Positions 5,264 to 43,565 of a stretch of DNA of 64,000 bases are shown here, piece after piece (the stretch's first letter is position 1; each line of letters opens with the position of its first letter). Both the position numbers and the translations under genes were made by a program. Source of the DNA: a virus (Duplodnaviria; Caudoviricetes); the IMG/VR virus record IMGVR_UViG_3300026165_000001, positions 1 to 64,000 of that record. The stretch is one strand, 5' to 3'. The notes below the pieces were generated by a model, which worked only from the letters and a program-made list of their open reading frames with translations, made no database searches and had not been told where the DNA came from.

Positions 5264-7917
5264 GCGCCGAAGAGTTTGCGAGTATCACTGTAACGGTTCA
5301 AAGTCTCGTTGATAGCATCAAGCTCAGTCTCGTAAACATTTTCACTATCAGACTCAAGCTGTTGCTCGTCAACTTGACCGGCGCGCTTGATAACGTTGAT
5401 TGCCTGCATGGCCATGTTGATGTATTTTCCACCAAGATCATGAACTGCATCTGATACTTTCATCATCATGTTGCTGAGTTCATCATCCTTGACGGCTGGC
5501 GCCAAAAAGTCTACCATTGCTGCGACTTCAGTTGCTGGGTCGTTGAATCTCTGGTTGGTTGGTGATTCTGGATCATCAAAATCAACCTCACGATTGAAGT
5601 AAATGTCGTCTTTGTTTTTCATTACATAACGCGCAAGTGATACAACCTGCTGCTCTAGTTCTTGACGATTGCGGTATGTTTCAATAACCCGTGCAACATA
5701 AGGAAGACTGTCTGCGATGCTTTCATCAAAATATGTCATTGTGGTTTCACTTTTGAGTTCGTCAATACGCTCTTGCGGCACTTCGCTTTTTTCCGTTGTG
5801 AAGCTTTCCAGTTGTGTCTTGTAACCAGTTGGGTTAGCCATCTTCTTGAGGTTATTGCGCAAACCACTGATACGTGATGTGATTTCTTCGCCTATCTGTT
5901 GGTCTTCAAAAAAGTCATTTCGACGATTTTTACGATTGAACTTCTTGAGCTGATTGAGCTCTTCCATTGTTTCGTAAATGTGCTGTCCAAAGTCATCAAA
6001 CGGCGTACCGCCTTCCTTAACATGGCGGGCCATGGCTTTTGCAGCGGTGATATTGTTGCTTGGAAACTTGAAACGTTCGCCTTCACTATTTTCAATGAAG
6101 ATGCTTTCGATCTGCCGTGTTCTTGCGCCACGCTTTTCTTCATCTACATTGCGCTTATGACGAACAATGAGACGAGCGTCTCCTAGTTCGTTAACGCTTT
6201 TACGTGCTGATCCGTGCCAGCCGCTGAAGCCCTCACTAACTGATTCAGGCAACTTGCCAACTGGTCTGGCTGTAGGATCAACCCCATCAAGATCTCGTTT
6301 TTTCTTAAATCTTCGTGTAAACCCTCTGTTTTCTGCACGATCTGCATCTGATCCGGGTCCTTTTACATCTCTTATTCGTTTATCAAAATTCATGTATGTT
6401 TTCTGATCAGCCTTGTATCGTTTTTGCCTTAGCTTATCGCCGGCGTCAACTCCATGATTATATGGTGCTGTTGAACCTTTTGTTTTCAATACCTGAGCAG
6501 CACGTTTTTGTGATCTCTCATCTTGATCTTTCGGATCGCCCCTGCGGATACGACCAGCAGTAGCTGGATATGAACCGGCATGAGGATTATTTCTCCATAC
6601 AGGATCCGTAATTGCACCTTGCTTCATAGCTTTCTGTCGTGGTGTCAATTCATTTAATTGATCTGTCTCATCAACACGGTCTGGTGCATTTTCAGGATCA
6701 CCTGTCTTAGCAAACCTTTTGGCGTGAACATGGTCTTTGAATGTTTTCATCGTGCCTTCTTGGTTTTTTGCCCACCAGCCGCCATCCTTCAATTTCTTTA
6801 CAGTGCCTTCGGCTTGTGCACCACCCCAACTTGATTCTTTAGTCATAACCTTAACCCTCTTATTGTTTTTTGCGTCGCGGATTTCACAATTCTGGCCTGG
6901 TTTAATATCTTCCATTTTCACATTCTCCTTGACCCGTGATGGATCTGGTTGTCCATCATGAATCATTTCATAGTAGGATAGGATTGCATCATAATTTGGC
7001 TTGAACAAAAGACGATCTGAAAAACTAAGTTCTTCATTTTCCTTCCACTTCTTTTTAATTGTTGCACGAGTGATTGGCTCACCTTTATGTTCCTTATAGA
7101 GCTCTGCCGCCCAAGTCTTGGGATTTCCAATACTTGCTTTTCCTTTGAAATATACCTGCCAGCTTGGATGAATAGCCGAACCACCCTTTAGATCAAATGA
7201 TTGCTGAGTGCCTGTGTGTTCTTTAACCATGATCTGCATCTTCTTTCCATTTGTAGTATTGCGAATCTCACAGTGCTTGCCTGGCTTGACATCCTGCGTT
7301 GCTTCCCATTCTCCATCGCGAATCTTTTTCATGACTGCTGCTCGCGTCATCTCTCGTGCTTCATTTACTGATTCATCTACAGGAATCAATGTGTTTAACG
7401 GGCGGCGCATTGTTCTTCCTTTGTCATCTTTCCCGTCAGCAAATGTTTTCATTTTACCCATATATTCAACGCGGTCAAAACCAGTGATTGTCATTACATT
7501 GCTGCTACTTTTGCTTGGAAGAACACGTTGTCCTACTTTGAATTTTCCACCCAGCGGTTTTGCTGCTTCTTCTACCTTGTTTTTTGCCATGTATGCGAAA
7601 TCCTTGGGTCCAATTGATTTGCCAAATGTCTTAACTGTGTATTCAATAATATAACGATTGGCTAGGTTACGTAGTCCCTTGAGCATTGCTGCGATGTCCT
7701 TGGGTTCTGTGTCCTTGGACAAATTAACAACAATTTCATTAGATGATTCATCAGCAACAAAGTTAACCATCATCTGGATATCCTTAGCATAGAAGCGGCG
7801 GGCTTCAGATGGATCTACAACCTTTTTGCCGCTTTCTGTGAACAATACAATATCGTGACCAAAACCCTTAATGATTTTGAATATCTGTTCTGAAATATGC
7901 TCAATTGAACTTGCCAT
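5260..7917 (-). CDS. Large putative head-associated protein (885 aa), modular
   Basis: Late promoter, internal duplicated module, many candidate xxE protease sites, located next to the terminase. Confidence 0.7.
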   Translation of the reverse strand: MASSIEHISEQIFKIIKGFGHDIVLFTESGKKVVDPSEARRFYAKDIQMMVNFVADESSNEIVVNLSKDTEPKDIAAMLKGLRNLANRYIIEYTVKTFGKSIGPKDFAYMAKNKVEEAAKPLGGKFKVGQRVLPSKSSSNVMTITGFDRVEYMGKMKTFADGKDDKGRTMRRPLNTLIPVDESVNEAREMTRAAVMKKIRDGEWEATQDVKPGKHCEIRNTTNGKKMQIMVKEHTGTQQSFDLKGGSAIHPSWQVYFKGKASIGNPKTWAAELYKEHKGEPITRATIKKKWKENEELSFSDRLLFKPNYDAILSYYEMIHDGQPDPSRVKENVKMEDIKPGQNCEIRDAKNNKRVKVMTKESSWGGAQAEGTVKKLKDGGWWAKNQEGTMKTFKDHVHAKRFAKTGDPENAPDRVDETDQLNELTPRQKAMKQGAITDPVWRNNPHAGSYPATAGRIRRGDPKDQDERSQKRAAQVLKTKGSTAPYNHGVDAGDKLRQKRYKADQKTYMNFDKRIRDVKGPGSDADRAENRGFTRRFKKKRDLDGVDPTARPVGKLPESVSEGFSGWHGSARKSVNELGDARLIVRHKRNVDEEKRGARTRQIESIFIENSEGERFKFPSNNITAAKAMARHVKEGGTPFDDFGQHIYETMEELNQLKKFNRKNRRNDFFEDQQIGEEITSRISGLRNNLKKMANPTGYKTQLESFTTEKSEVPQERIDELKSETTMTYFDESIADSLPYVARVIETYRNRQELEQQVVSLARYVMKNKDDIYFNREVDFDDPESPTNQRFNDPATEVAAMVDFLAPAVKDDELSNMMMKVSDAVHDLGGKYINMAMQAINVIKRAGQVDEQQLESDSENVYETELDAINETLNRYSDTRKLFGA

Positions 7918-7921
7918 ACTG

Positions 7922-8368
7922 TTATTTATCCTGATCTATTATTTTAACATTAGGGTTTCTTCTCTTGACGCGATCAACAACGTGTGATAGATATTCCTGA
8001 CCCATTTTTGTTGAACTGCTACGTTTGATAGCTTTGTTCTTTTCTCTAGCATAATCCGCAGCGGCTTGATATAGCTCACTTGCGAGTCCACGATTACGAT
8101 AATCTTCATCAACAATGACGTGCTTGAGCCATAGTTCATCATTGTCATATGGATTTATTTGTAATGCTAGACTTGATACAACTCGTTGCCCATCAAAATG
8201 AGCAATGTGTATTTCTTTATCCATTTCATTTACATGAAGATAGCGTAGCCTTTCAAATGTATCCTGATTGACATCTTGGTTACGGGAAATGAAAAGAGCT
8301 AGATCATTTCCCGGCATGATTTTCATCTGTATGTCGTTATTTTCAAATAGATGTCGATATCTCATCAC
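7922..8368 (-). CDS. GNAT-family acetyltransferase
   Basis: Acetyl-CoA motif A VIVDEDYRNRGLASELY. Confidence 0.85.
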   Translation of the reverse strand: MMRYRHLFENNDIQMKIMPGNDLALFISRNQDVNQDTFERLRYLHVNEMDKEIHIAHFDGQRVVSSLALQINPYDNDELWLKHVIVDEDYRNRGLASELYQAAADYAREKNKAIKRSSSTKMGQEYLSHVVDRVKRRNPNVKIIDQDK

Positions 8369-9924
8369 AATATTCCGATGGGCATGGGTCGTCTTAGTTC
8401 AGCATCATCAAAACTATCCTTGAGATCAGTGAATGCGTCCTCATCATATTTGGCAACTTGCATGGCCATGCGAACAGCAAGGAGGGTTGACATGACAAGA
8501 TCGTCTGTATCCCCGTCCTTTGCTGCATAGCTGTTTCCCTTTGCTACAAAAGTTTTGAGTTCGCGAGTAAGGTTCTTGCTGCGAACCTTCATTGTTTCTT
8601 CTTCAACCCAACGCTTGAGCTTTGCGCAAGAAGCAAGTTTTGTGCCGTGGGTTGTGTTAAACCCTTTTCTATATCTTCTTACGTTACCCCGTCGCCTTGG
8701 CTCACTAAGGAAAATCCCTGGCAGATTTTCTTCACCCATTTCTTCGATAGAAACTAGGGCGGCTTCACCTAATGTATTGTTTTCTACACTGTAGTAGATT
8801 TCACTATTCGGTGCAGCATCTTCAAGCTCTTCCAAAATACTTTTTAATACTTTGATTTGACCTTGGACTGGAGTCTTATTGTGTTGCCATTCGCCAATCT
8901 GACGCATGCCAGGTATAGCAAATACTTGAATAGCAGAAGGGTCGCCGCCCGTTCCTAGGCTTGGATCTAGTGCCACTAGATAGGTTTGCTCATCACGAAT
9001 TGCATCATACCATCGGATCTGGCCGCTTCGACGCAGTGGCTCCATGCCGAGGTCCATTTCGGAGAGGAAAATAGAATTGATAAGAGTTTCATCGAACGCA
9101 ATGAATTCACATTCATGCTCACGGCGAAATCGTTCATCGCCAATTTTGGATCTTTCGTTCGTTGCCCATTCTTGATCGCGATCTGGATGTTGATCCCACT
9201 TAACAATATATGGACGGAAACCATTTACGCCTGTTTCTGTTTCATTACCAAACTCATCAACGCGACGATTAGCTTGCTTCCAGATTTGAGCAAATTGGTC
9301 GTCATCTTGGTTGGGTGTTGAGGTAATAATACACTTACCACCAGTACTCAATGTTGGTGAGATACTGGTCCAAAATTCCTGGGCCACACGTGGCGGCACA
9401 AAGGCAAATTCGTCCAAGTAAACTAGTGAAAGTGAAAGACCACGTCCGGTGTTTTCTGTGGTAGCTTGCGCAACAATTTTACTACCGTTGTCAAATTCAA
9501 TGCTTCCTTTATTATATGCTGTTACGCCAGCCCTAATATAGTCTGGGCAACTTTCATACATATAACGTAGACGTGTCATGATTTCTTGTGCACCGTCACG
9601 TTTGTGAGCAGCAACTAATATGGTGCTATCCGGCTTAAACATAGCATACCAAAGCAAGTATGCAGCCGCGCAAGTGGACTTACCAGTCTGGCGACTAAGC
9701 AAGCTGATTGAATAACGATAATCATTGTAGCTGTTGATCAACCCTTCCTGATAGTCAAACAACTGGAAAGACATCCGTCCTTTTGTTGGATGTTGAATAT
9801 AACAATAGTTTCTAATGAAATGTAACGGATTAACTGAGCAAAGTGCGAGCTCTCTCAGTTCTTTTTGTGACATCGCCTGTTCTTGATACGGGCGTTTGAC
9901 AAGATCTGTATTTACAGTATTCAC
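8365..9924 (-). CDS. terL: Terminase large subunit (gp17-like)
   Basis: SRQTGKST Walker A, YLDEFAFV Walker B, ITSTPN, nuclease motifs ALDPSLGTGGD and DDLVMS. Confidence 0.97.
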   Translation of the reverse strand: MNTVNTDLVKRPYQEQAMSQKELRELALCSVNPLHFIRNYCYIQHPTKGRMSFQLFDYQEGLINSYNDYRYSISLLSRQTGKSTCAAAYLLWYAMFKPDSTILVAAHKRDGAQEIMTRLRYMYESCPDYIRAGVTAYNKGSIEFDNGSKIVAQATTENTGRGLSLSLVYLDEFAFVPPRVAQEFWTSISPTLSTGGKCIITSTPNQDDDQFAQIWKQANRRVDEFGNETETGVNGFRPYIVKWDQHPDRDQEWATNERSKIGDERFRREHECEFIAFDETLINSIFLSEMDLGMEPLRRSGQIRWYDAIRDEQTYLVALDPSLGTGGDPSAIQVFAIPGMRQIGEWQHNKTPVQGQIKVLKSILEELEDAAPNSEIYYSVENNTLGEAALVSIEEMGEENLPGIFLSEPRRRGNVRRYRKGFNTTHGTKLASCAKLKRWVEEETMKVRSKNLTRELKTFVAKGNSYAAKDGDTDDLVMSTLLAVRMAMQVAKYDEDAFTDLKDSFDDAELRRPMPIGIL

Positions 9925-9970
9925 CGTTACTCCTTACAGATTCAAACAGGACCCATAAAGAAGAGCTCGT

Positions 9971-10429
9971 TTAGCCCTTCTTTTTATGTGCCTTGTATTC
10001 CTTGAGCATACCCTCTTCAGTATGATCTTCTTCAATCTGAACTTTTTGTGGGTCTGCATTGAGATAACGACGTAGGCTCAAATCAACTGTTTCACCTTCA
10101 GGAGGCTCTTGATAATGGCCACGATCATCATACTGCTTATAGATACTATTGGACCATTCACGCATTTGCTGTTGTTCGGTCTTGGCTGACTTTTTAGACT
10201 TTTCTTTATCCTTAGCAGCTTTCTTTGCTGTTTCTTTTTCGTCACCATCGCCGTCGATATCAGCAAAATCTGGTTTCGCTTCTTCTTCTTCGAGTTCTTT
10301 AGAATCCTGTGCGTCTTCCATTAGGTCACGGATTTGATACATGTTGCGTCCTGACTCGTCTTGTGGCAATTTTTTTGCTGTTTCATTACCTGCGAGCTGG
10401 CGTAGTCTGTCGAGTTCTGTTTTATCCAT
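9971..10429 (-). CDS. Putative head-internal protein with an RLxxLAG motif and a DxDxDG loop
   Basis: N-terminus MDKTELDRLRQLAGNE. DIDGDGDEKE resembles a Ca-binding loop. Confidence 0.6.
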   Translation of the reverse strand: MDKTELDRLRQLAGNETAKKLPQDESGRNMYQIRDLMEDAQDSKELEEEEAKPDFADIDGDGDEKETAKKAAKDKEKSKKSAKTEQQQMREWSNSIYKQYDDRGHYQEPPEGETVDLSLRRYLNADPQKVQIEEDHTEEGMLKEYKAHKKKG

Positions 10430-39058: not shown

Positions 39059-41341
39059 TTATTGACTTTCTTCAGCAGTGCGATTGAGTCTTTGTAGTTG
39101 ACGATTTGTGTCTTCTATCAGTTCTGTTTGACGAGCTAACCAGTCTTCTATTCTAGGTGCAGCTTGATTGTTAAGAAACGCATTCATTTCTTGGGTATTT
39201 GCTTCTATTCCATTGACACCATTGGGTGTAGTCATTGAACCAGGATTAACTGGGCCCGGAGTTCTTTCTAGTATACTGTTATTTTCAAATGGAGTATTAA
39301 GAGCTGGATAACTTTGAGCCTCACGTTGCATCCATTCATTACGTCGTCGTTGCCATTCTAATTGCTCATCGTTAGTACCATCCGTCGGAAATGGATATTG
39401 ATCTTCAAATTTTCCGCTAATTGTTCCATCGCCGGTTGGTTTAATTCCCAGTCCTGTTGCAAAAGCACCAGCTGGTGTCGCGGCGCGGGTGCCTTTTACA
39501 AGCATCGGCAAAAATCGACTCAAAATTCCAGGAGTTTTTGATGCTGCTGCTGATGCACCAGATTTAACTGCGCCTGTGCCGCGTGTAACCCAATTACGCA
39601 ATTGTGAGAATAAGCCGCCAGCACCAGATGCAGCACCTGAACCCCGTCCTAATAGATTTTTAGCACCACCAAGCATTCTTCCTCCGGTTTTACGCCATCC
39701 CCAACCCAACATCTTACGTCCAGGACCTGTAAGAGAGAGCAGCCCAAGGCCGACACCAGCTGCTTTTAACGCATCAGTAAACCTTTCCATACCGGTTGTC
39801 ATTTCAGAATATGAACCTTTTATTCCTTGCCACAGCGTGTTATCGGGTCCGAAATTATCCGAAATATTGCGTATTGCCTCGACCAATTCTCCTCCACTAC
39901 TTTTGACATCAAGTCCGAGATTTTCAATAACTGTTGACAAAGTGCTATCTTTCATACGATTAGTGGTTTCTTGTATGTGGCTTGCAAGTGCGAGGAGTTC
40001 AGTCTCCATTGTGGCTTGAGCTGCATCTTGATGTGCTTCACGATTGGTTTCAACAGCCTTTTCAAGTCCTTGCAATTCACTCACAAGGCTTATCAATTGG
40101 GCCGCGCCATCGACATCTCTCTGTGCAAGTCGACCCAACTGCACCATTTCATCAGCTGGTATGGCATCACCCAGTTCAGCCAATCTGCTAACCAATTGAA
40201 CATTAAATTCACTTGTGTCCATGGTTTTCATGTTGCTACTAACAAAATTAAAAATATCCTGCAACATTGTGTTTGCTTCGCTATTGATTGATGCGATTGC
40301 ACGGACTGCTTCATTATTTGTGGTGCGGAAATCCAACCCTGTTGCGATGGCTTGAGCCATGGCCAAACCAATCTGGTCACCAACTTCCCCGCCGGCGCCG
40401 AATACAGTTGCCAAGGAATTGAAATTCTCGCTCAACCTGCCACCTTCACGCTCTATGCTCATACGGAATGCAGTGATTGCTGGATCGTCTGCCATTTCAC
40501 GACGTTTACGTATCATATCACGTCGATCTTGTCCAGTAATAGCAGCAAGTCCTGTTGTTTCAAGCAATAGATTATTCATTGATTCTGCCAGGCCATCTTG
40601 TATTGCTTGTTGATTCATGCCGCTGCGGCGACGGATTTCAATTTCTTCCAATAACATTTCATTATATTCAGTATTAGTTAAACCAAAGTTATTGAAATCT
40701 CTTGCGAGCACTCTTGCTTCACGGCTAATCCTACTGAAGTTAGCGGCGCCGTCTTGTGCATTTTCACCCATTGCACGAAGTGAATCTCCGTTGCTCATTA
40801 CCAATTTGCCATAGTCTTCCATATTGAGACCTGTTAATGTGGCTTGATGTCTCAATTCTACAAGGCTAGATCCCAATCCAATACCGACATTTGAAAGTTC
40901 ACTGACGTTTTTTGCGAATTCTTCAAGCACACTTACTGCAAATCCCGCAGCGGCGCCGATGGCTCCGATTGGAATCAATGCCTTTACGATGCCAGAAAGA
41001 CTTTCCTTATTAAAGGCATCTGCAAGATCTTTACTAGTGGATTTCAGTGAATTGGTAGCATTTTGCAGAGCCTTTCCGTGATCTTTACGAAATTCATTGA
41101 GCTTCTTTTCAGCTTTAATACTTTCGGACCGATCTTGTTTTGTAGCTGTCTTCAAGTCACGCAATATTTTTTGATTGTCCGCTACTGTCTTTTGACTACG
41201 TCCTGAATGCTTGACCAATTCAGTTAGAGCTTTGGCGCTTGCGAGATTGAACTTTGACATTTCGCGAGCAGTTTCTTCGGTTGCCCAACGAGGAACGCGA
41301 ACACTTTCTCCGCCAATTATAATTTCAATATCATCTGCCAT
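39059..41341 (-). CDS. Tape-measure-like protein
   Basis: Long helical Ala/Gly-rich protein with hydrophobic patches, divergent from the hub-chaperone genes. Confidence 0.6.
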   Translation of the reverse strand: MADDIEIIIGGESVRVPRWATEETAREMSKFNLASAKALTELVKHSGRSQKTVADNQKILRDLKTATKQDRSESIKAEKKLNEFRKDHGKALQNATNSLKSTSKDLADAFNKESLSGIVKALIPIGAIGAAAGFAVSVLEEFAKNVSELSNVGIGLGSSLVELRHQATLTGLNMEDYGKLVMSNGDSLRAMGENAQDGAANFSRISREARVLARDFNNFGLTNTEYNEMLLEEIEIRRRSGMNQQAIQDGLAESMNNLLLETTGLAAITGQDRRDMIRKRREMADDPAITAFRMSIEREGGRLSENFNSLATVFGAGGEVGDQIGLAMAQAIATGLDFRTTNNEAVRAIASINSEANTMLQDIFNFVSSNMKTMDTSEFNVQLVSRLAELGDAIPADEMVQLGRLAQRDVDGAAQLISLVSELQGLEKAVETNREAHQDAAQATMETELLALASHIQETTNRMKDSTLSTVIENLGLDVKSSGGELVEAIRNISDNFGPDNTLWQGIKGSYSEMTTGMERFTDALKAAGVGLGLLSLTGPGRKMLGWGWRKTGGRMLGGAKNLLGRGSGAASGAGGLFSQLRNWVTRGTGAVKSGASAAASKTPGILSRFLPMLVKGTRAATPAGAFATGLGIKPTGDGTISGKFEDQYPFPTDGTNDEQLEWQRRRNEWMQREAQSYPALNTPFENNSILERTPGPVNPGSMTTPNGVNGIEANTQEMNAFLNNQAAPRIEDWLARQTELIEDTNRQLQRLNRTAEESQ

Positions 41342-42260: not shown

Positions 42261-42476
42261 ATGACTCCTGGTGAATTAAGACAATACATTCACGATATGG
42301 AGGTGGAGGTAGAACGACTGGAGGAATACGTATTTGATATAGCACTCTTTAGTGAGGGTGCGATATCTGTTAGTGAACTCCTAGGTATGCCCATGCCCAA
42401 AATACGAAAATTCGAAGAACGCCTAAGCGAAAAAGTCAAAGCAGAAGCTGGCAAGAAGGGAACCGAGTATCTCTAA
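42261..42476 (+). CDS. Small hub-assembly protein (gp51-like); probable -1 frameshift extension of the upstream ORF
   Basis: SVSELLGMPM motif. No SD; in the -1 frame relative to 41413..42246. Confidence 0.6.
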   Translation: MTPGELRQYIHDMEVEVERLEEYVFDIALFSEGAISVSELLGMPMPKIRKFEERLSEKVKAEAGKKGTEYL

Positions 42477-42485
42477 TCAACTCAG

Positions 42486-42607
42486 ACGGTTGTCAACCGT
42501 ATATTTCCATCCACTCCACTCTATTATAGTGATGCTTCGCATCACTAGCTGATTCGCATATCTCATCTCCATTCGCTTCGCTCATTTCGATTCGATCTGC
42601 TTTCAGC
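42486..42607. repeat. Cluster of hairpins including GCGAAGC mini-hairpins (minus strand)
   Basis: ACGGTTG-T-CAACCGT 42486-42500; TAGTGATGC-TTC-GCATCACTA 42527-42547; GCTTCGC 42575-42581. Confidence 0.7.
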
Positions 42608-42691
42608 ATTTCTTATCGTGTTTTACTATGTCGAATTGTCATTCCATTTTGATTTGAATGTTTTGAATCTATTAGGCATTTCCCAGAACCA

Positions 42692-43050
42692 ATAGCCACA
42701 CTTTGCCCGATGAGGCAAAGTGTGGCTATGGCAGACGTTTCCCGTCACCAACCCAGCAAGCTGGGCCACTCCGTTCCAAAACAACCTTGTATAGCCAGGG
42801 AAGGGCGGTTGAGCGATACCCTTTTATGTTTAGCTTTTCAACGCGGGACCACATCATGCTGTTAACGGCTTACACGATGCTGCCTGTGGGTTCCAAGCGT
42901 GTGAGGAGAGCCCACTCATTTCTCAGGTGTCAATCTGAGTGCGTATATGACTGCGACATGCCAGATCTGTTGCCGAAAATTTGTTTACGGCTCCTCAAGG
43001 CATTCATTGAGGTCGCTATGGTCAGGGTTCTGAGGTTGGTCCTAATAAGC
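42692..43050 (-). ncRNA. Candidate large structured RNA (~360 nt)
   Basis: At least 8 stems, including a perfect 16-bp hairpin at 42692-42729 and a possible pseudoknot; intergenic; GC-richer than its flanks. Confidence 0.55.
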
Positions 43051-43055
43051 CTATA

Positions 43056-43565
43056 TTAGTTGTGAGCACTTTCAAAGGCAGCTCTATTGAGTTCAAAGAA
43101 ACTATCAAATTCTGTTAGTTTCCAAACAACTCCTTCCTGGTCCGTGTAGACAACGTGTCTGTTGGTTTTGAATGGCAACGTAGCATCAAATCCAACAAAC
43201 TTACCTACACGGGTAATTTTCATAAAAAGAATATTAATGTCATCATCGTCCGCAGCATCTTTGATTTGCTGCAACCAATCTTCGAGAATAGGGATCGGCT
43301 CGTTGAATAGTAATCTATGGAACGGAAAACTTGCGTAGTTTTTACATTCACAGTTAAATCGATTCCAATGATCAGGCGGAACAATGTCGCCCTTCATGTG
43401 ACGTATCTGCCCATCACTCATGAGAATTTTACGGTCGGCATTGCTGCCACCTGTATAAGCCCCACTGTTGGGGACGCGCATGAATGGCGCGCCATAAGTC
43501 TCTGTCAAGTATTTGGCGACATCACGTTCCCACGCGCCGCCCTTGGCTTTGCTTTTACTGGTCAA
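43056..43565 (-). CDS. Holliday-junction resolvase-like PD-(D/E)xK nuclease
   Basis: SKAKGGAWERDVA...RVPNSGA...GDI...ECKNY. Confidence 0.75.
   Translation of the reverse strand: MTSKSKAKGGAWERDVAKYLTETYGAPFMRVPNSGAYTGGSNADRKILMSDGQIRHMKGDIVPPDHWNRFNCECKNYASFPFHRLLFNEPIPILEDWLQQIKDAADDDDINILFMKITRVGKFVGFDATLPFKTNRHVVYTDQEGVVWKLTEFDSFFELNRAAFESAHN

Follow-up and report, generated by a model that had tools for sequence, protein, structure and literature searches.

A Structured Non-coding RNA Family Downstream of gp47 and gp46 in Uncultured Giant Phages

The Intergenic Gap and Its Gene Neighbourhood

What is encoded in the long gap that lies between the recombination genes of an uncultured giant phage and the baseplate hub genes that face them? 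The window, by which we mean the whole stretch of DNA that was analyzed (the first 64 kb of an 87,355-bp IMG/VR virus record with a CheckV completeness of 24%), has an intergenic gap of 579 nt (42477-43055) with convergent genes on either side, in keeping with the space of about 580 nt in which a sequence-only reading of this DNA had proposed a large undescribed phage non-coding RNA. The gap is bordered by a 71-aa ORF on the plus strand, which ends at 42476 and is near a gene for a gp26-like baseplate hub protein (plus strand; PF12322, 1.9e-20), and by a gene for a PDDEXK_15 nuclease on the minus strand (43056-43565; 2.5e-24). On the same strand as the nuclease gene are two small ORFs, along with the genes for the SbcC/gp46-like (phrog_77, 4.4e-105) and SbcD/gp47-like (phrog_100, 2.2e-63) proteins. 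Based on these orientations, the gap sits between convergent transcription units. A T4-type portal gene (minus strand) is also in the neighbourhood of the element, and a 760-aa ORF between the portal and hub genes (39059-41341, minus strand) has no Pfam or PHROG family. The nearest cultured phages, as judged by gp46, are PA5oct (49.7%), Phosso and Atu_ph07, all of them with less than 50% identity.

The G+C content is 0.50-0.535 at 42700-42999 versus approximately 0.33-0.46 in the surroundings, and there is no compositional break at the element beyond gene-strand effects. The gap also has features on the plus strand, as the 71-aa ORF is followed by two plus-strand hairpins (42486-42500 and 42527-42547), the second of which has a 9-bp stem with a UUCG loop and is conserved in three relatives (L003, L006, and L083). 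These hairpins probably mark where the hub operon ends, as its 3' end or its terminator region, and the gap consequently holds elements of both strands. A block at 42560-42640, reading GCUGAAAGCAGAUCGAAUCG ... GGAGAUGAGAUAUGCGAAUCAGC on the minus strand, is conserved in close relatives only.

A Conserved Core with Two Pseudoknots

We gathered 84 IMG/VR loci by searches with the nuclease and hub proteins. In blastn comparisons the gap was about 70% conserved among the closest loci, and a stretch of about 140 nt (approximately 42780-42925 of the window) was conserved even where nuclease identity was around 50%. The first alignment of these relatives already held compensatory changes. As the sequence-only reading had recommended for syntenic relatives, a covariance model was built; this model, R1, has 153 positions and 24 pairs and is derived from 50 IMG/VR representatives. 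It finds the element as a single copy in the 87-kb record, matching all 153 positions at 42922-42764 on the minus strand with 112.1 bits (E 2e-25), a score that is partly circular since the window is one of the 50 training rows; it is the independent relatives that carry the argument.

The conserved core (42922-42764, minus strand) comprises P2 with its inner hairpin P2a, P3, P4, P5, and two pseudoknots, all of which can be read in the window and make it a member of the R1 family. All of the hairpins listed in the sequence-only reading are present. The core is preceded by P1, a CUCAG/CUGAG hairpin with a UUGACA-type loop (42939-35/42926-22) that relatives keep with differing stems, and it includes a single-stranded AAAUGA (42916-42921) that is near-invariant in the alignment columns. 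P2 (42915-11/42890-86) encloses GCUCU, P2a (42907-05/42894-92), and AAC. P3 (42880-73/42858-51) needs G-U pairs, and a segment of its loop, CCGUU (42868-42864), is the 5' arm of pseudoknot PK2, whose 3' arm is AACGG (42771-42775). The other pseudoknot, PK1, joins GUUGA (42838-42842) to UCAAC (42812-42808) in the loop of P4, an AAGGGU...GCCCUU hairpin (42801-42823; paired at 42823-19/42805-01) with a conserved U.G that closes the stem; the family form of PK1 is GUUGR/YCAAC. P5 is a CCUGG/CAAGG hairpin (42785-42799). Approximately 30 bases of the core are invariant and unpaired. Many members have a clear small hairpin, P3.5, around GUUGR, of which the window has only 2 bp, and GCGU may alternatively pair with bases that precede GUAA.

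Pair counts were made for P2, P2a, P3, P4, P5, and PK1 in the 50 representatives, using a MAFFT alignment that was not fitted to the structure. Standard pairs were found in 88.5% of 1413 cells, compared to 69.8% in shuffles (none of 500 reached the observed value), and as the shuffles ignore relatedness these figures are not probabilities. Slid-partner controls, which keep relatedness, had 36-50% of cells paired, far below 88.5%. Both sides had changed in 335 cells versus 120 in the shuffles, and the covariation score was 0.545 versus 0.212 shuffled. For the individual helices, P2 (helix 1) was paired in 99.2% of cells with changes on both sides in four of its five pairs, P2a (helix 2) in 97.3%, and P4 (helix 6) in 100%, with changes on both sides in all five pairs and the closing U.G in 48 of the 50 representatives. 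PK1 (helix 5), which had been proposed from the window alone as a pairing of the P4 loop with 42838-42844, was paired in 94% of cells; its position 4 is GC in 26 representatives, AU in 17, and GU in seven, and its position 5 has five pair types. P5 (helix 7) was paired in 89% of cells and both of its counted pairs covary. P1 was judged by eye and left uncounted because MAFFT misaligns it, and misalignment likewise precluded a fair count of hpA, hpB, P6, and P6.1.

Since MAFFT cannot align PK2, this pseudoknot was tested directly by duplex energies. The duplex of a member's loop with its own tail had a mean of -11.2 kcal/mol versus -5.5 kcal/mol with the tails of other members, and the own tail ranked in the best 5% for 52 of 80 distinct loop-tail combinations. 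The arms of PK2 are typically 7-11 bp and differ from member to member.

The minus-strand fold predicted by RNAalifold has 28 pairs and an energy of -24.8 kcal/mol, compared to 16 pairs and -16.6 kcal/mol for the plus strand, and the single-sequence MFE z-scores were -3.98 and -2.42, respectively. Single-sequence folding and the rise in G+C are not decisive on their own; the compensatory change across relatives is. We consider it close to certain that the minus-strand structured RNA family is real.

Strand and Absence of a Reading Frame

The RNA is on the minus strand and thus co-directional with the gp47-gp46-PDDEXK nuclease genes. The U.G of P4 and the frequent G-U pairs of P3 would be mismatches on the plus strand and argue for a minus-strand RNA, as had been deduced earlier from the G-U pairs needed at 42851-58/42873-80; the pairs of P7 (see below) agree, and the sense MFE is below the antisense MFE in 95 of 98 distinct members.

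A different account of the conservation would be that it is at the protein level and that the plus strand carries a genuine gene, a 118-aa ORF (42703-43059) whose frame is open in the window and several close relatives. At least one antisense frame is open over the core in 26 of 100 aligned members; the other 74 have stops in all three frames of the ORF's strand within the core, so that conservation of this ORF, named in the sequence-only reading as evidence that would count against an RNA, was not observed. The substitutions are compensatory within helices, the G-U pairs are valid on the opposite strand only, and the ORF has no Pfam or PHROG family, all of which leave the probability of a gene here next to nil. 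A 52-aa ORF on the minus strand also has no Pfam or PHROG family, and stops occur in all three sense frames within the core in 95 of the 100 members. The element is non-coding, as no reading frame is conserved.

Domains 5' and 3' of the Core

At least 14 sequences form a subfamily in which conservation extends beyond the core in both directions. P1 is preceded in them by a three-way-junction domain (42953-43016, minus strand) which contains an invariant CAUAGC and whose closing helix (43016-43012/42957-42953) encloses two hairpins (43012-43007/42998-42993 and 42991-42988/42975-42972). The closing helix is paired in 13-14 of the 14 sequences with GC/AU exchanges at two positions, the variants being GCGAC/GUCGC, GCGGC/GCCGC, GCAGC/GCUGC, and GCAAC/GUUGC. 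We considered whether CAUAGC pairs with P7 at its 3' end and rejected this, since that end varies while CAUAGC is invariant.

On the 3' side, P6 (CCCAGC/GCUGGG, 42752-42765, minus strand) is variable, as some relatives are without it and the complementary stems differ when compared by eye. It is followed by a small hairpin, GACG-GGAAA-CGUC (42734-42746, minus strand), within the conserved GGUGACGGNAAA, and by P7 (42692-42729, minus strand), a 16-bp hairpin that forms a perfect inverted repeat (100% complementary), as had been recognized before. Across the family, the 3' arm of P7 keeps its sequence, GGCNAAGUGUG. At most positions the hairpin is paired in 11-13 of the 14 sequences, and these pairs include U.G (six) and G.U (five), which are possible on the minus strand only and mark P7 as an RNA feature, neither a DNA cruciform nor a two-way terminator. 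By a strict pattern, a P7-like hairpin with the 3' arm GGCUAAGUGUG is present 20-50 nt past the core in 61 of 98 members, and most of the misses listed carry the hairpin with a slightly different 5' arm.

There is no U-run after P7 on either strand. An intrinsic terminator was not found at 42692-42729, the sole terminator-like site in 42300-43300 being at 42342-42361 (plus strand), and scans for sigma-70 promoters and terminators detected neither at the element. On this account, both the ends of the RNA and its expression are putative. One promoter motif, CTAATATAGGCT, which straddles the stop codon of the nuclease gene, was considered and dropped; TAATATAG occurs five times in the window versus 1.56 expected, and three of its other four copies are inside ORFs, two of those on the wrong strand.

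Two possible leader arms at the 5' end, UUAUUAGG (43041-43048, minus strand) and CCUCAGAACC (43026-43035, minus strand), complement 42669-42676 and 42682-42690, respectively, and the CAGAACCC in the leader arm is conserved within the close subfamily. Their partner in the window is a 3' trailer (42669-42690, minus strand) with a conserved YUGGNAAA motif. The duplex of leader (43048-41, 43035-26) and trailer (42690-82, 42676-69) has an energy of -21.8 kcal/mol versus -7.7 kcal/mol for non-self combinations. As the stem is strong in only two of 12 relatives tested (the window and L006), we dropped this closing helix as a family feature and consider it lineage-specific or due to chance. The RNA is predicted to extend on the minus strand from 43048 or 43016 to 42692 or 42669. 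The bounds of 42692-43050 that were proposed originally are therefore nearly right, and the element is marginally longer if its ends are at 43048 and 42669.

Occurrence in Uncultured Giant Phages

The core was detected by iterated nhmmer in 45 of the 84 loci fetched through their neighbours, and the covariance model added 13 of the remaining 39. A scan of IMG/VR for the P4-region motif, made without regard to context, returned at least 120 stretches, 119 of which have the whole core by nhmmer. The extended hits together comprise at least 102 distinct cores, which fall into 53 clusters when grouped at 88% identity. Among the matches listed, a neighbouring gene was recognizable at 110 of the 119 loci, and all 110 have the order seen in the window, with gp47 and gp46 upstream on the strand of the RNA and the hub gene convergent downstream; the nuclease was found upstream at 26 of these 110. 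An entire clade of uncultured giant phages has this RNA as one of its core features.

Three loci have an extra ORF of 149-153 aa (5032-5490 in L070, 5069-5518 in L035, and 5011-5472 in L053; plus strand in locus orientation) between the RNA and the hub operon, about 200 nt downstream of the RNA and on its strand. These ORFs have no Pfam family, and most relatives are without them.

Such ORFs, together with the aptamer-like size of the RNA and its pseudoknots, would suit a riboswitch or leader that controls a downstream gene on the minus strand. In the window, however, there is no minus-strand ORF between 42764 and 41341 and the next genes converge with the element, and the downstream ORF of these loci is missing from most relatives. 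Rfam gave no riboswitch match either, and we regard this explanation as very improbable.

Homologs in Cultured Phages and Bacteria

Searches of cultured phages with blastn gave no match, either for the element of the window or for a central family member. Over their complete records, R1 had no match in PA5oct, Phosso, Vibrio phage 2.275.O, and Salicola phage SCTP-2, beyond one marginal hit in PA5oct (E 0.3), and nhmmer was negative as well on the three local loci. Atu_ph07 has a weak R1 match (490093-490271; 29.6 bits, genome-wide E 1e-4), which is some 17 kb away from gp46 in a region where nothing is annotated between 489783 and 490380. P1, AAAUGA, P2 with GCUCU and AAC, PK1 as GUUGU/ACAAC, and PK2 arms GUAGUAAA/UUUACUAC can be made out by eye in this candidate, and its arrangement around P4 differs from that of the family. 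Directly after the candidate RNA, in the place of P7, is a hairpin of about 17 bp, AUCCCCCUGCUAUCAAA ... UUUGAUAGCGGGGGGAU (L233 1380-1480, corresponding to Atu_ph07 approximately 489,970-490,070, minus strand), that is unrelated to P7 in sequence. A candidate copy in a cultured Agrobacterium phage makes the RNA open to experiment.

A motif scan of 185,579 species genomes returned eight stretches, which by our own estimate is about the number expected by chance. One of the eight, L217 in an Azospirillum MAG, is a full-length R1 match of 47.6 bits and the only full-length one with E < 1e-5; L215 has a weak full-length match (18.4 bits, E about 0.003-0.009) and L213 a partial one (model positions 77-132, 28.5 bits). 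A search of the Azospirillaceae found matches in five of 121 genomes, all weak (29-48 bits). Three of these are full-length members that keep PK2 with different arms (CUCGCAG/CUGCGAG, CUUGCAG/CUGCAAG, and AGGUGCAAGA/UCUUGCACCU). Two of the three are near genes for phage tail, tail-fibre, and endolysin proteins, one prophage copy coming after the last tail genes, and the neighbours of the third are unrecognizable; they have no neighbouring proteins in common and no gp46 or gp47 neighbours. The other two matches are shorter, lack P4, and are beside integrase genes, and their membership in the family is uncertain. The occurrence of the RNA in temperate prophages indicates that its function is probably portable.

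These settings bear on the suggestion, made in the sequence-only reading, that the RNA is a replication primer like ColE1 RNA II that is coupled to the recombination genes. ColE1 RNA II is a series of stem-loops guiding R-loop formation, and the element resembles it in being a structured RNA of some hundreds of nucleotides on a mobile replicon, here beside recombination genes and an AT-richer stretch (42500-42699, G+C 0.38). That "AT tract" does not hold up as an origin feature, as its G+C is within the normal range for the window, and no iteron-like repeat arrays adjoin the element, only short matches in two copies. Origin features were not detected, no link between a DNA start and the RNA's 3' terminus came to light, and the core, unlike RNA II, is a compact double pseudoknot. 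Homologs recur in prophages and elsewhere in Atu_ph07, without gp46 and gp47 beside them, and their unrelated places speak more for a self-contained RNA than for an origin element tied to one site. Outside the clade there is no fixed linkage to recombination genes, and a primer role, for which only the neighbourhood speaks, has very little probability.

More weight attaches to a role in cis, in which the element would be a 3'-end module of the gp47-gp46-nuclease unit whose compact pseudoknotted fold and P7 hairpin would stop or process its transcripts and, at the meeting point of two convergent operons, shield the upstream mRNA from 3' exonucleases. The position in the jumbo-phage clade is rigid, always at the end of the same operon and facing the baseplate hub operon (110/110 among the listed loci with a neighbour match), P7 is at the extreme 3' end, and one prophage copy also follows the last genes of a unit, those of the tail; a cis role would fit this. 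However, P7 is without a U-run and the terminator scan was blank there, the Atu_ph07 copy is in another context, and a stabilizer would need far less than two covarying pseudoknots and some 30 invariant unpaired bases within 153 nt. We consider a cis role unlikely overall, and what standing it has comes from the constant place of the element behind a single operon.

Comparison with Known RNA Families

Rfam 15 had no matches at gathering scores in the 64-kb window, a search that had also been recommended. With E up to 10, the 4-kb region, the 421-nt element, and member L157 gave chance hits only (eukaryotic miRNA and snoRNA models and isrB, E 2.5-9, at or close to the element in the window and in L157), and with E up to 1 there were none on the element in the bacterial members L217, L213, and L215, where the real matches were confined to tRNA genes in another part of L213. 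ARAGORN found no tRNA or tmRNA genes in the window. The earlier statement that the element has no hallmark of a tRNA, tmRNA, RNase P, or intron is borne out by these blank results from Rfam 15 and ARAGORN, and its proposal of a large undescribed phage non-coding RNA is upheld by the covariation, the lack of a match in Rfam 15, and the non-coding nature of the element. Three likenesses, CAGAACCC, ACAG..CAAACCGCC, and GGGCUC, which we take to resemble conserved regions of RNase P, were set aside since no RNase P model matches.

In the literature searched, this RNA is not described, and neither a function nor a curated family was found for it in the sources searched. The family may be listed, unnamed, in the bulk catalogue of PMC10690425, which contains more than ten thousand candidate viral RNAs from IMG/VR.

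Like GOLLD, ROOL, raiA, and OLE, the RNA is long, multi-helix, and pseudoknotted with many invariant unpaired bases, has no obligate adjacent protein gene, and is unassigned in function. The family is carried by phages and prophages, as are GOLLD and ROOL. It differs from these four RNAs in being smaller (about 330-380 nt, with a core of 153), in its helix plan, in having no match to them at E up to 10, and in its fixed position after gp47-gp46 in one jumbo-phage clade. Large, intricately folded RNAs with an unassigned job are rare, and OLE, GOLLD, ROOL, and raiA each opened new RNA biology. The phi29 pRNA (RF00044) is also encoded by a phage, has a similar core size, and uses loop complementarity. 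Unlike the pRNA, the element has no Rfam match, belongs to an unrelated phage group, and is not beside packaging genes; its loop pairings are read here as pseudoknots.

In the SRP Alu domain, which is joined to an S domain, two hairpins are separated by (U)GUAA or UGUNR and their two loops are base-paired. The element is similar in that a near-invariant GUAA has the GUUGR that follows P3 on one side and the YCAAC of the P4 loop on the other. It has no S domain, however, the more 5' of the two hairpins is weak in the window, if present at all, and the SRP covariance models gave no match. We treat this likeness as a lead only.

Double-pseudoknot architecture and strongly conserved unpaired nucleotides are also what one might expect of a new ribozyme, self-cleaving or otherwise catalytic, in which the invariant bases of the junctions would be assembled into an active site by the pseudoknots. 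The DNA of phages and prophages is a frequent location of self-cleaving ribozymes. The ribozyme families of Rfam gave no match at E up to 10, though, and the size of at least 153 nt is above that of the known self-cleaving classes, all of which are smaller to our knowledge. We therefore consider a ribozyme doubtful, with long odds against it.

A Possible Function in Trans

Our preferred explanation, to which we assign a probability of about 0.5 as a whole, is that the element is a structured non-coding RNA of about 330-380 nt, from a family outside Rfam 15, that is self-contained and acts in trans. The same fold is present in three unrelated genomic settings with no common neighbouring gene, and this speaks for a self-contained RNA with a target common to the hosts. 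The RNA would either form the 3' end of the gp47-gp46-nuclease transcript or have an unrecognized phage promoter and, in the window, could be released through the leader/trailer stem. The invariant unpaired bases held by the two pseudoknots look like a binding or active site; under the preferred explanation AAAUGA, GCUCU, AAC, GUAA, UAC-GC, and ACC would form a partner-binding site, the partner would be one common to different hosts, and the RNA might serve as a decoy or scaffold. That the RNA is a trans-acting binder, rather than a cis element or a ribozyme, is a tentative proposal for which the odds are a little short of even.

We also entertained a bolder version, in which this is a new functional class of phage RNA that is not passive, being either catalytic or a mimic that binds to the translation machinery of the host. 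With its kissing loops, the hairpin-GUAA-hairpin unit may be said to recall the SRP Alu domain and the loop platforms that bind the tRNA elbow, and carriers of the RNA include giant phages with translation factors, such as Atu_ph07, whose annotation includes a threonyl-tRNA synthetase and a peptidyl-tRNA hydrolase. If true, the RNA would be a portable tool common to lytic giant phages and temperate phages, but we think this version improbable.

Other Stretches in Relatives and Bacterial Genomes

Stretches of 1-2 kb beside the resolvase gene were observed in PA5oct (L207 approximately 6700-8850, or 75.7-77.85 kb of the phage) and Phosso (L208 approximately 9411-10424). That of PA5oct has four tiny annotated ORFs (38-50 aa) and one ORF of 150 aa, while that of Phosso has none. 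R1 does not match either stretch, and they may hold a different or very divergent RNA.

The partial match in L213, on a Marinobacter confluentis contig (approximately 5071-5129, minus strand), covers GUUGG-GUAA-P4-P5 only. The surrounding stretch is poor in ORFs and has four tRNA genes about 4 kb away; the 5' half of the match is different, and it may represent a variant architecture. The two Azospirillaceae matches without P4 (L229 and L230, with the RNA at approximately 6001-6124, minus strand) are each next to an integrase-like gene and share on their other flank a small operon (a 55-64-aa ORF, DUF6626, and a 168-aa ORF); this locus resembles an integrative element whose RNA has a 5' half of a separate kind.
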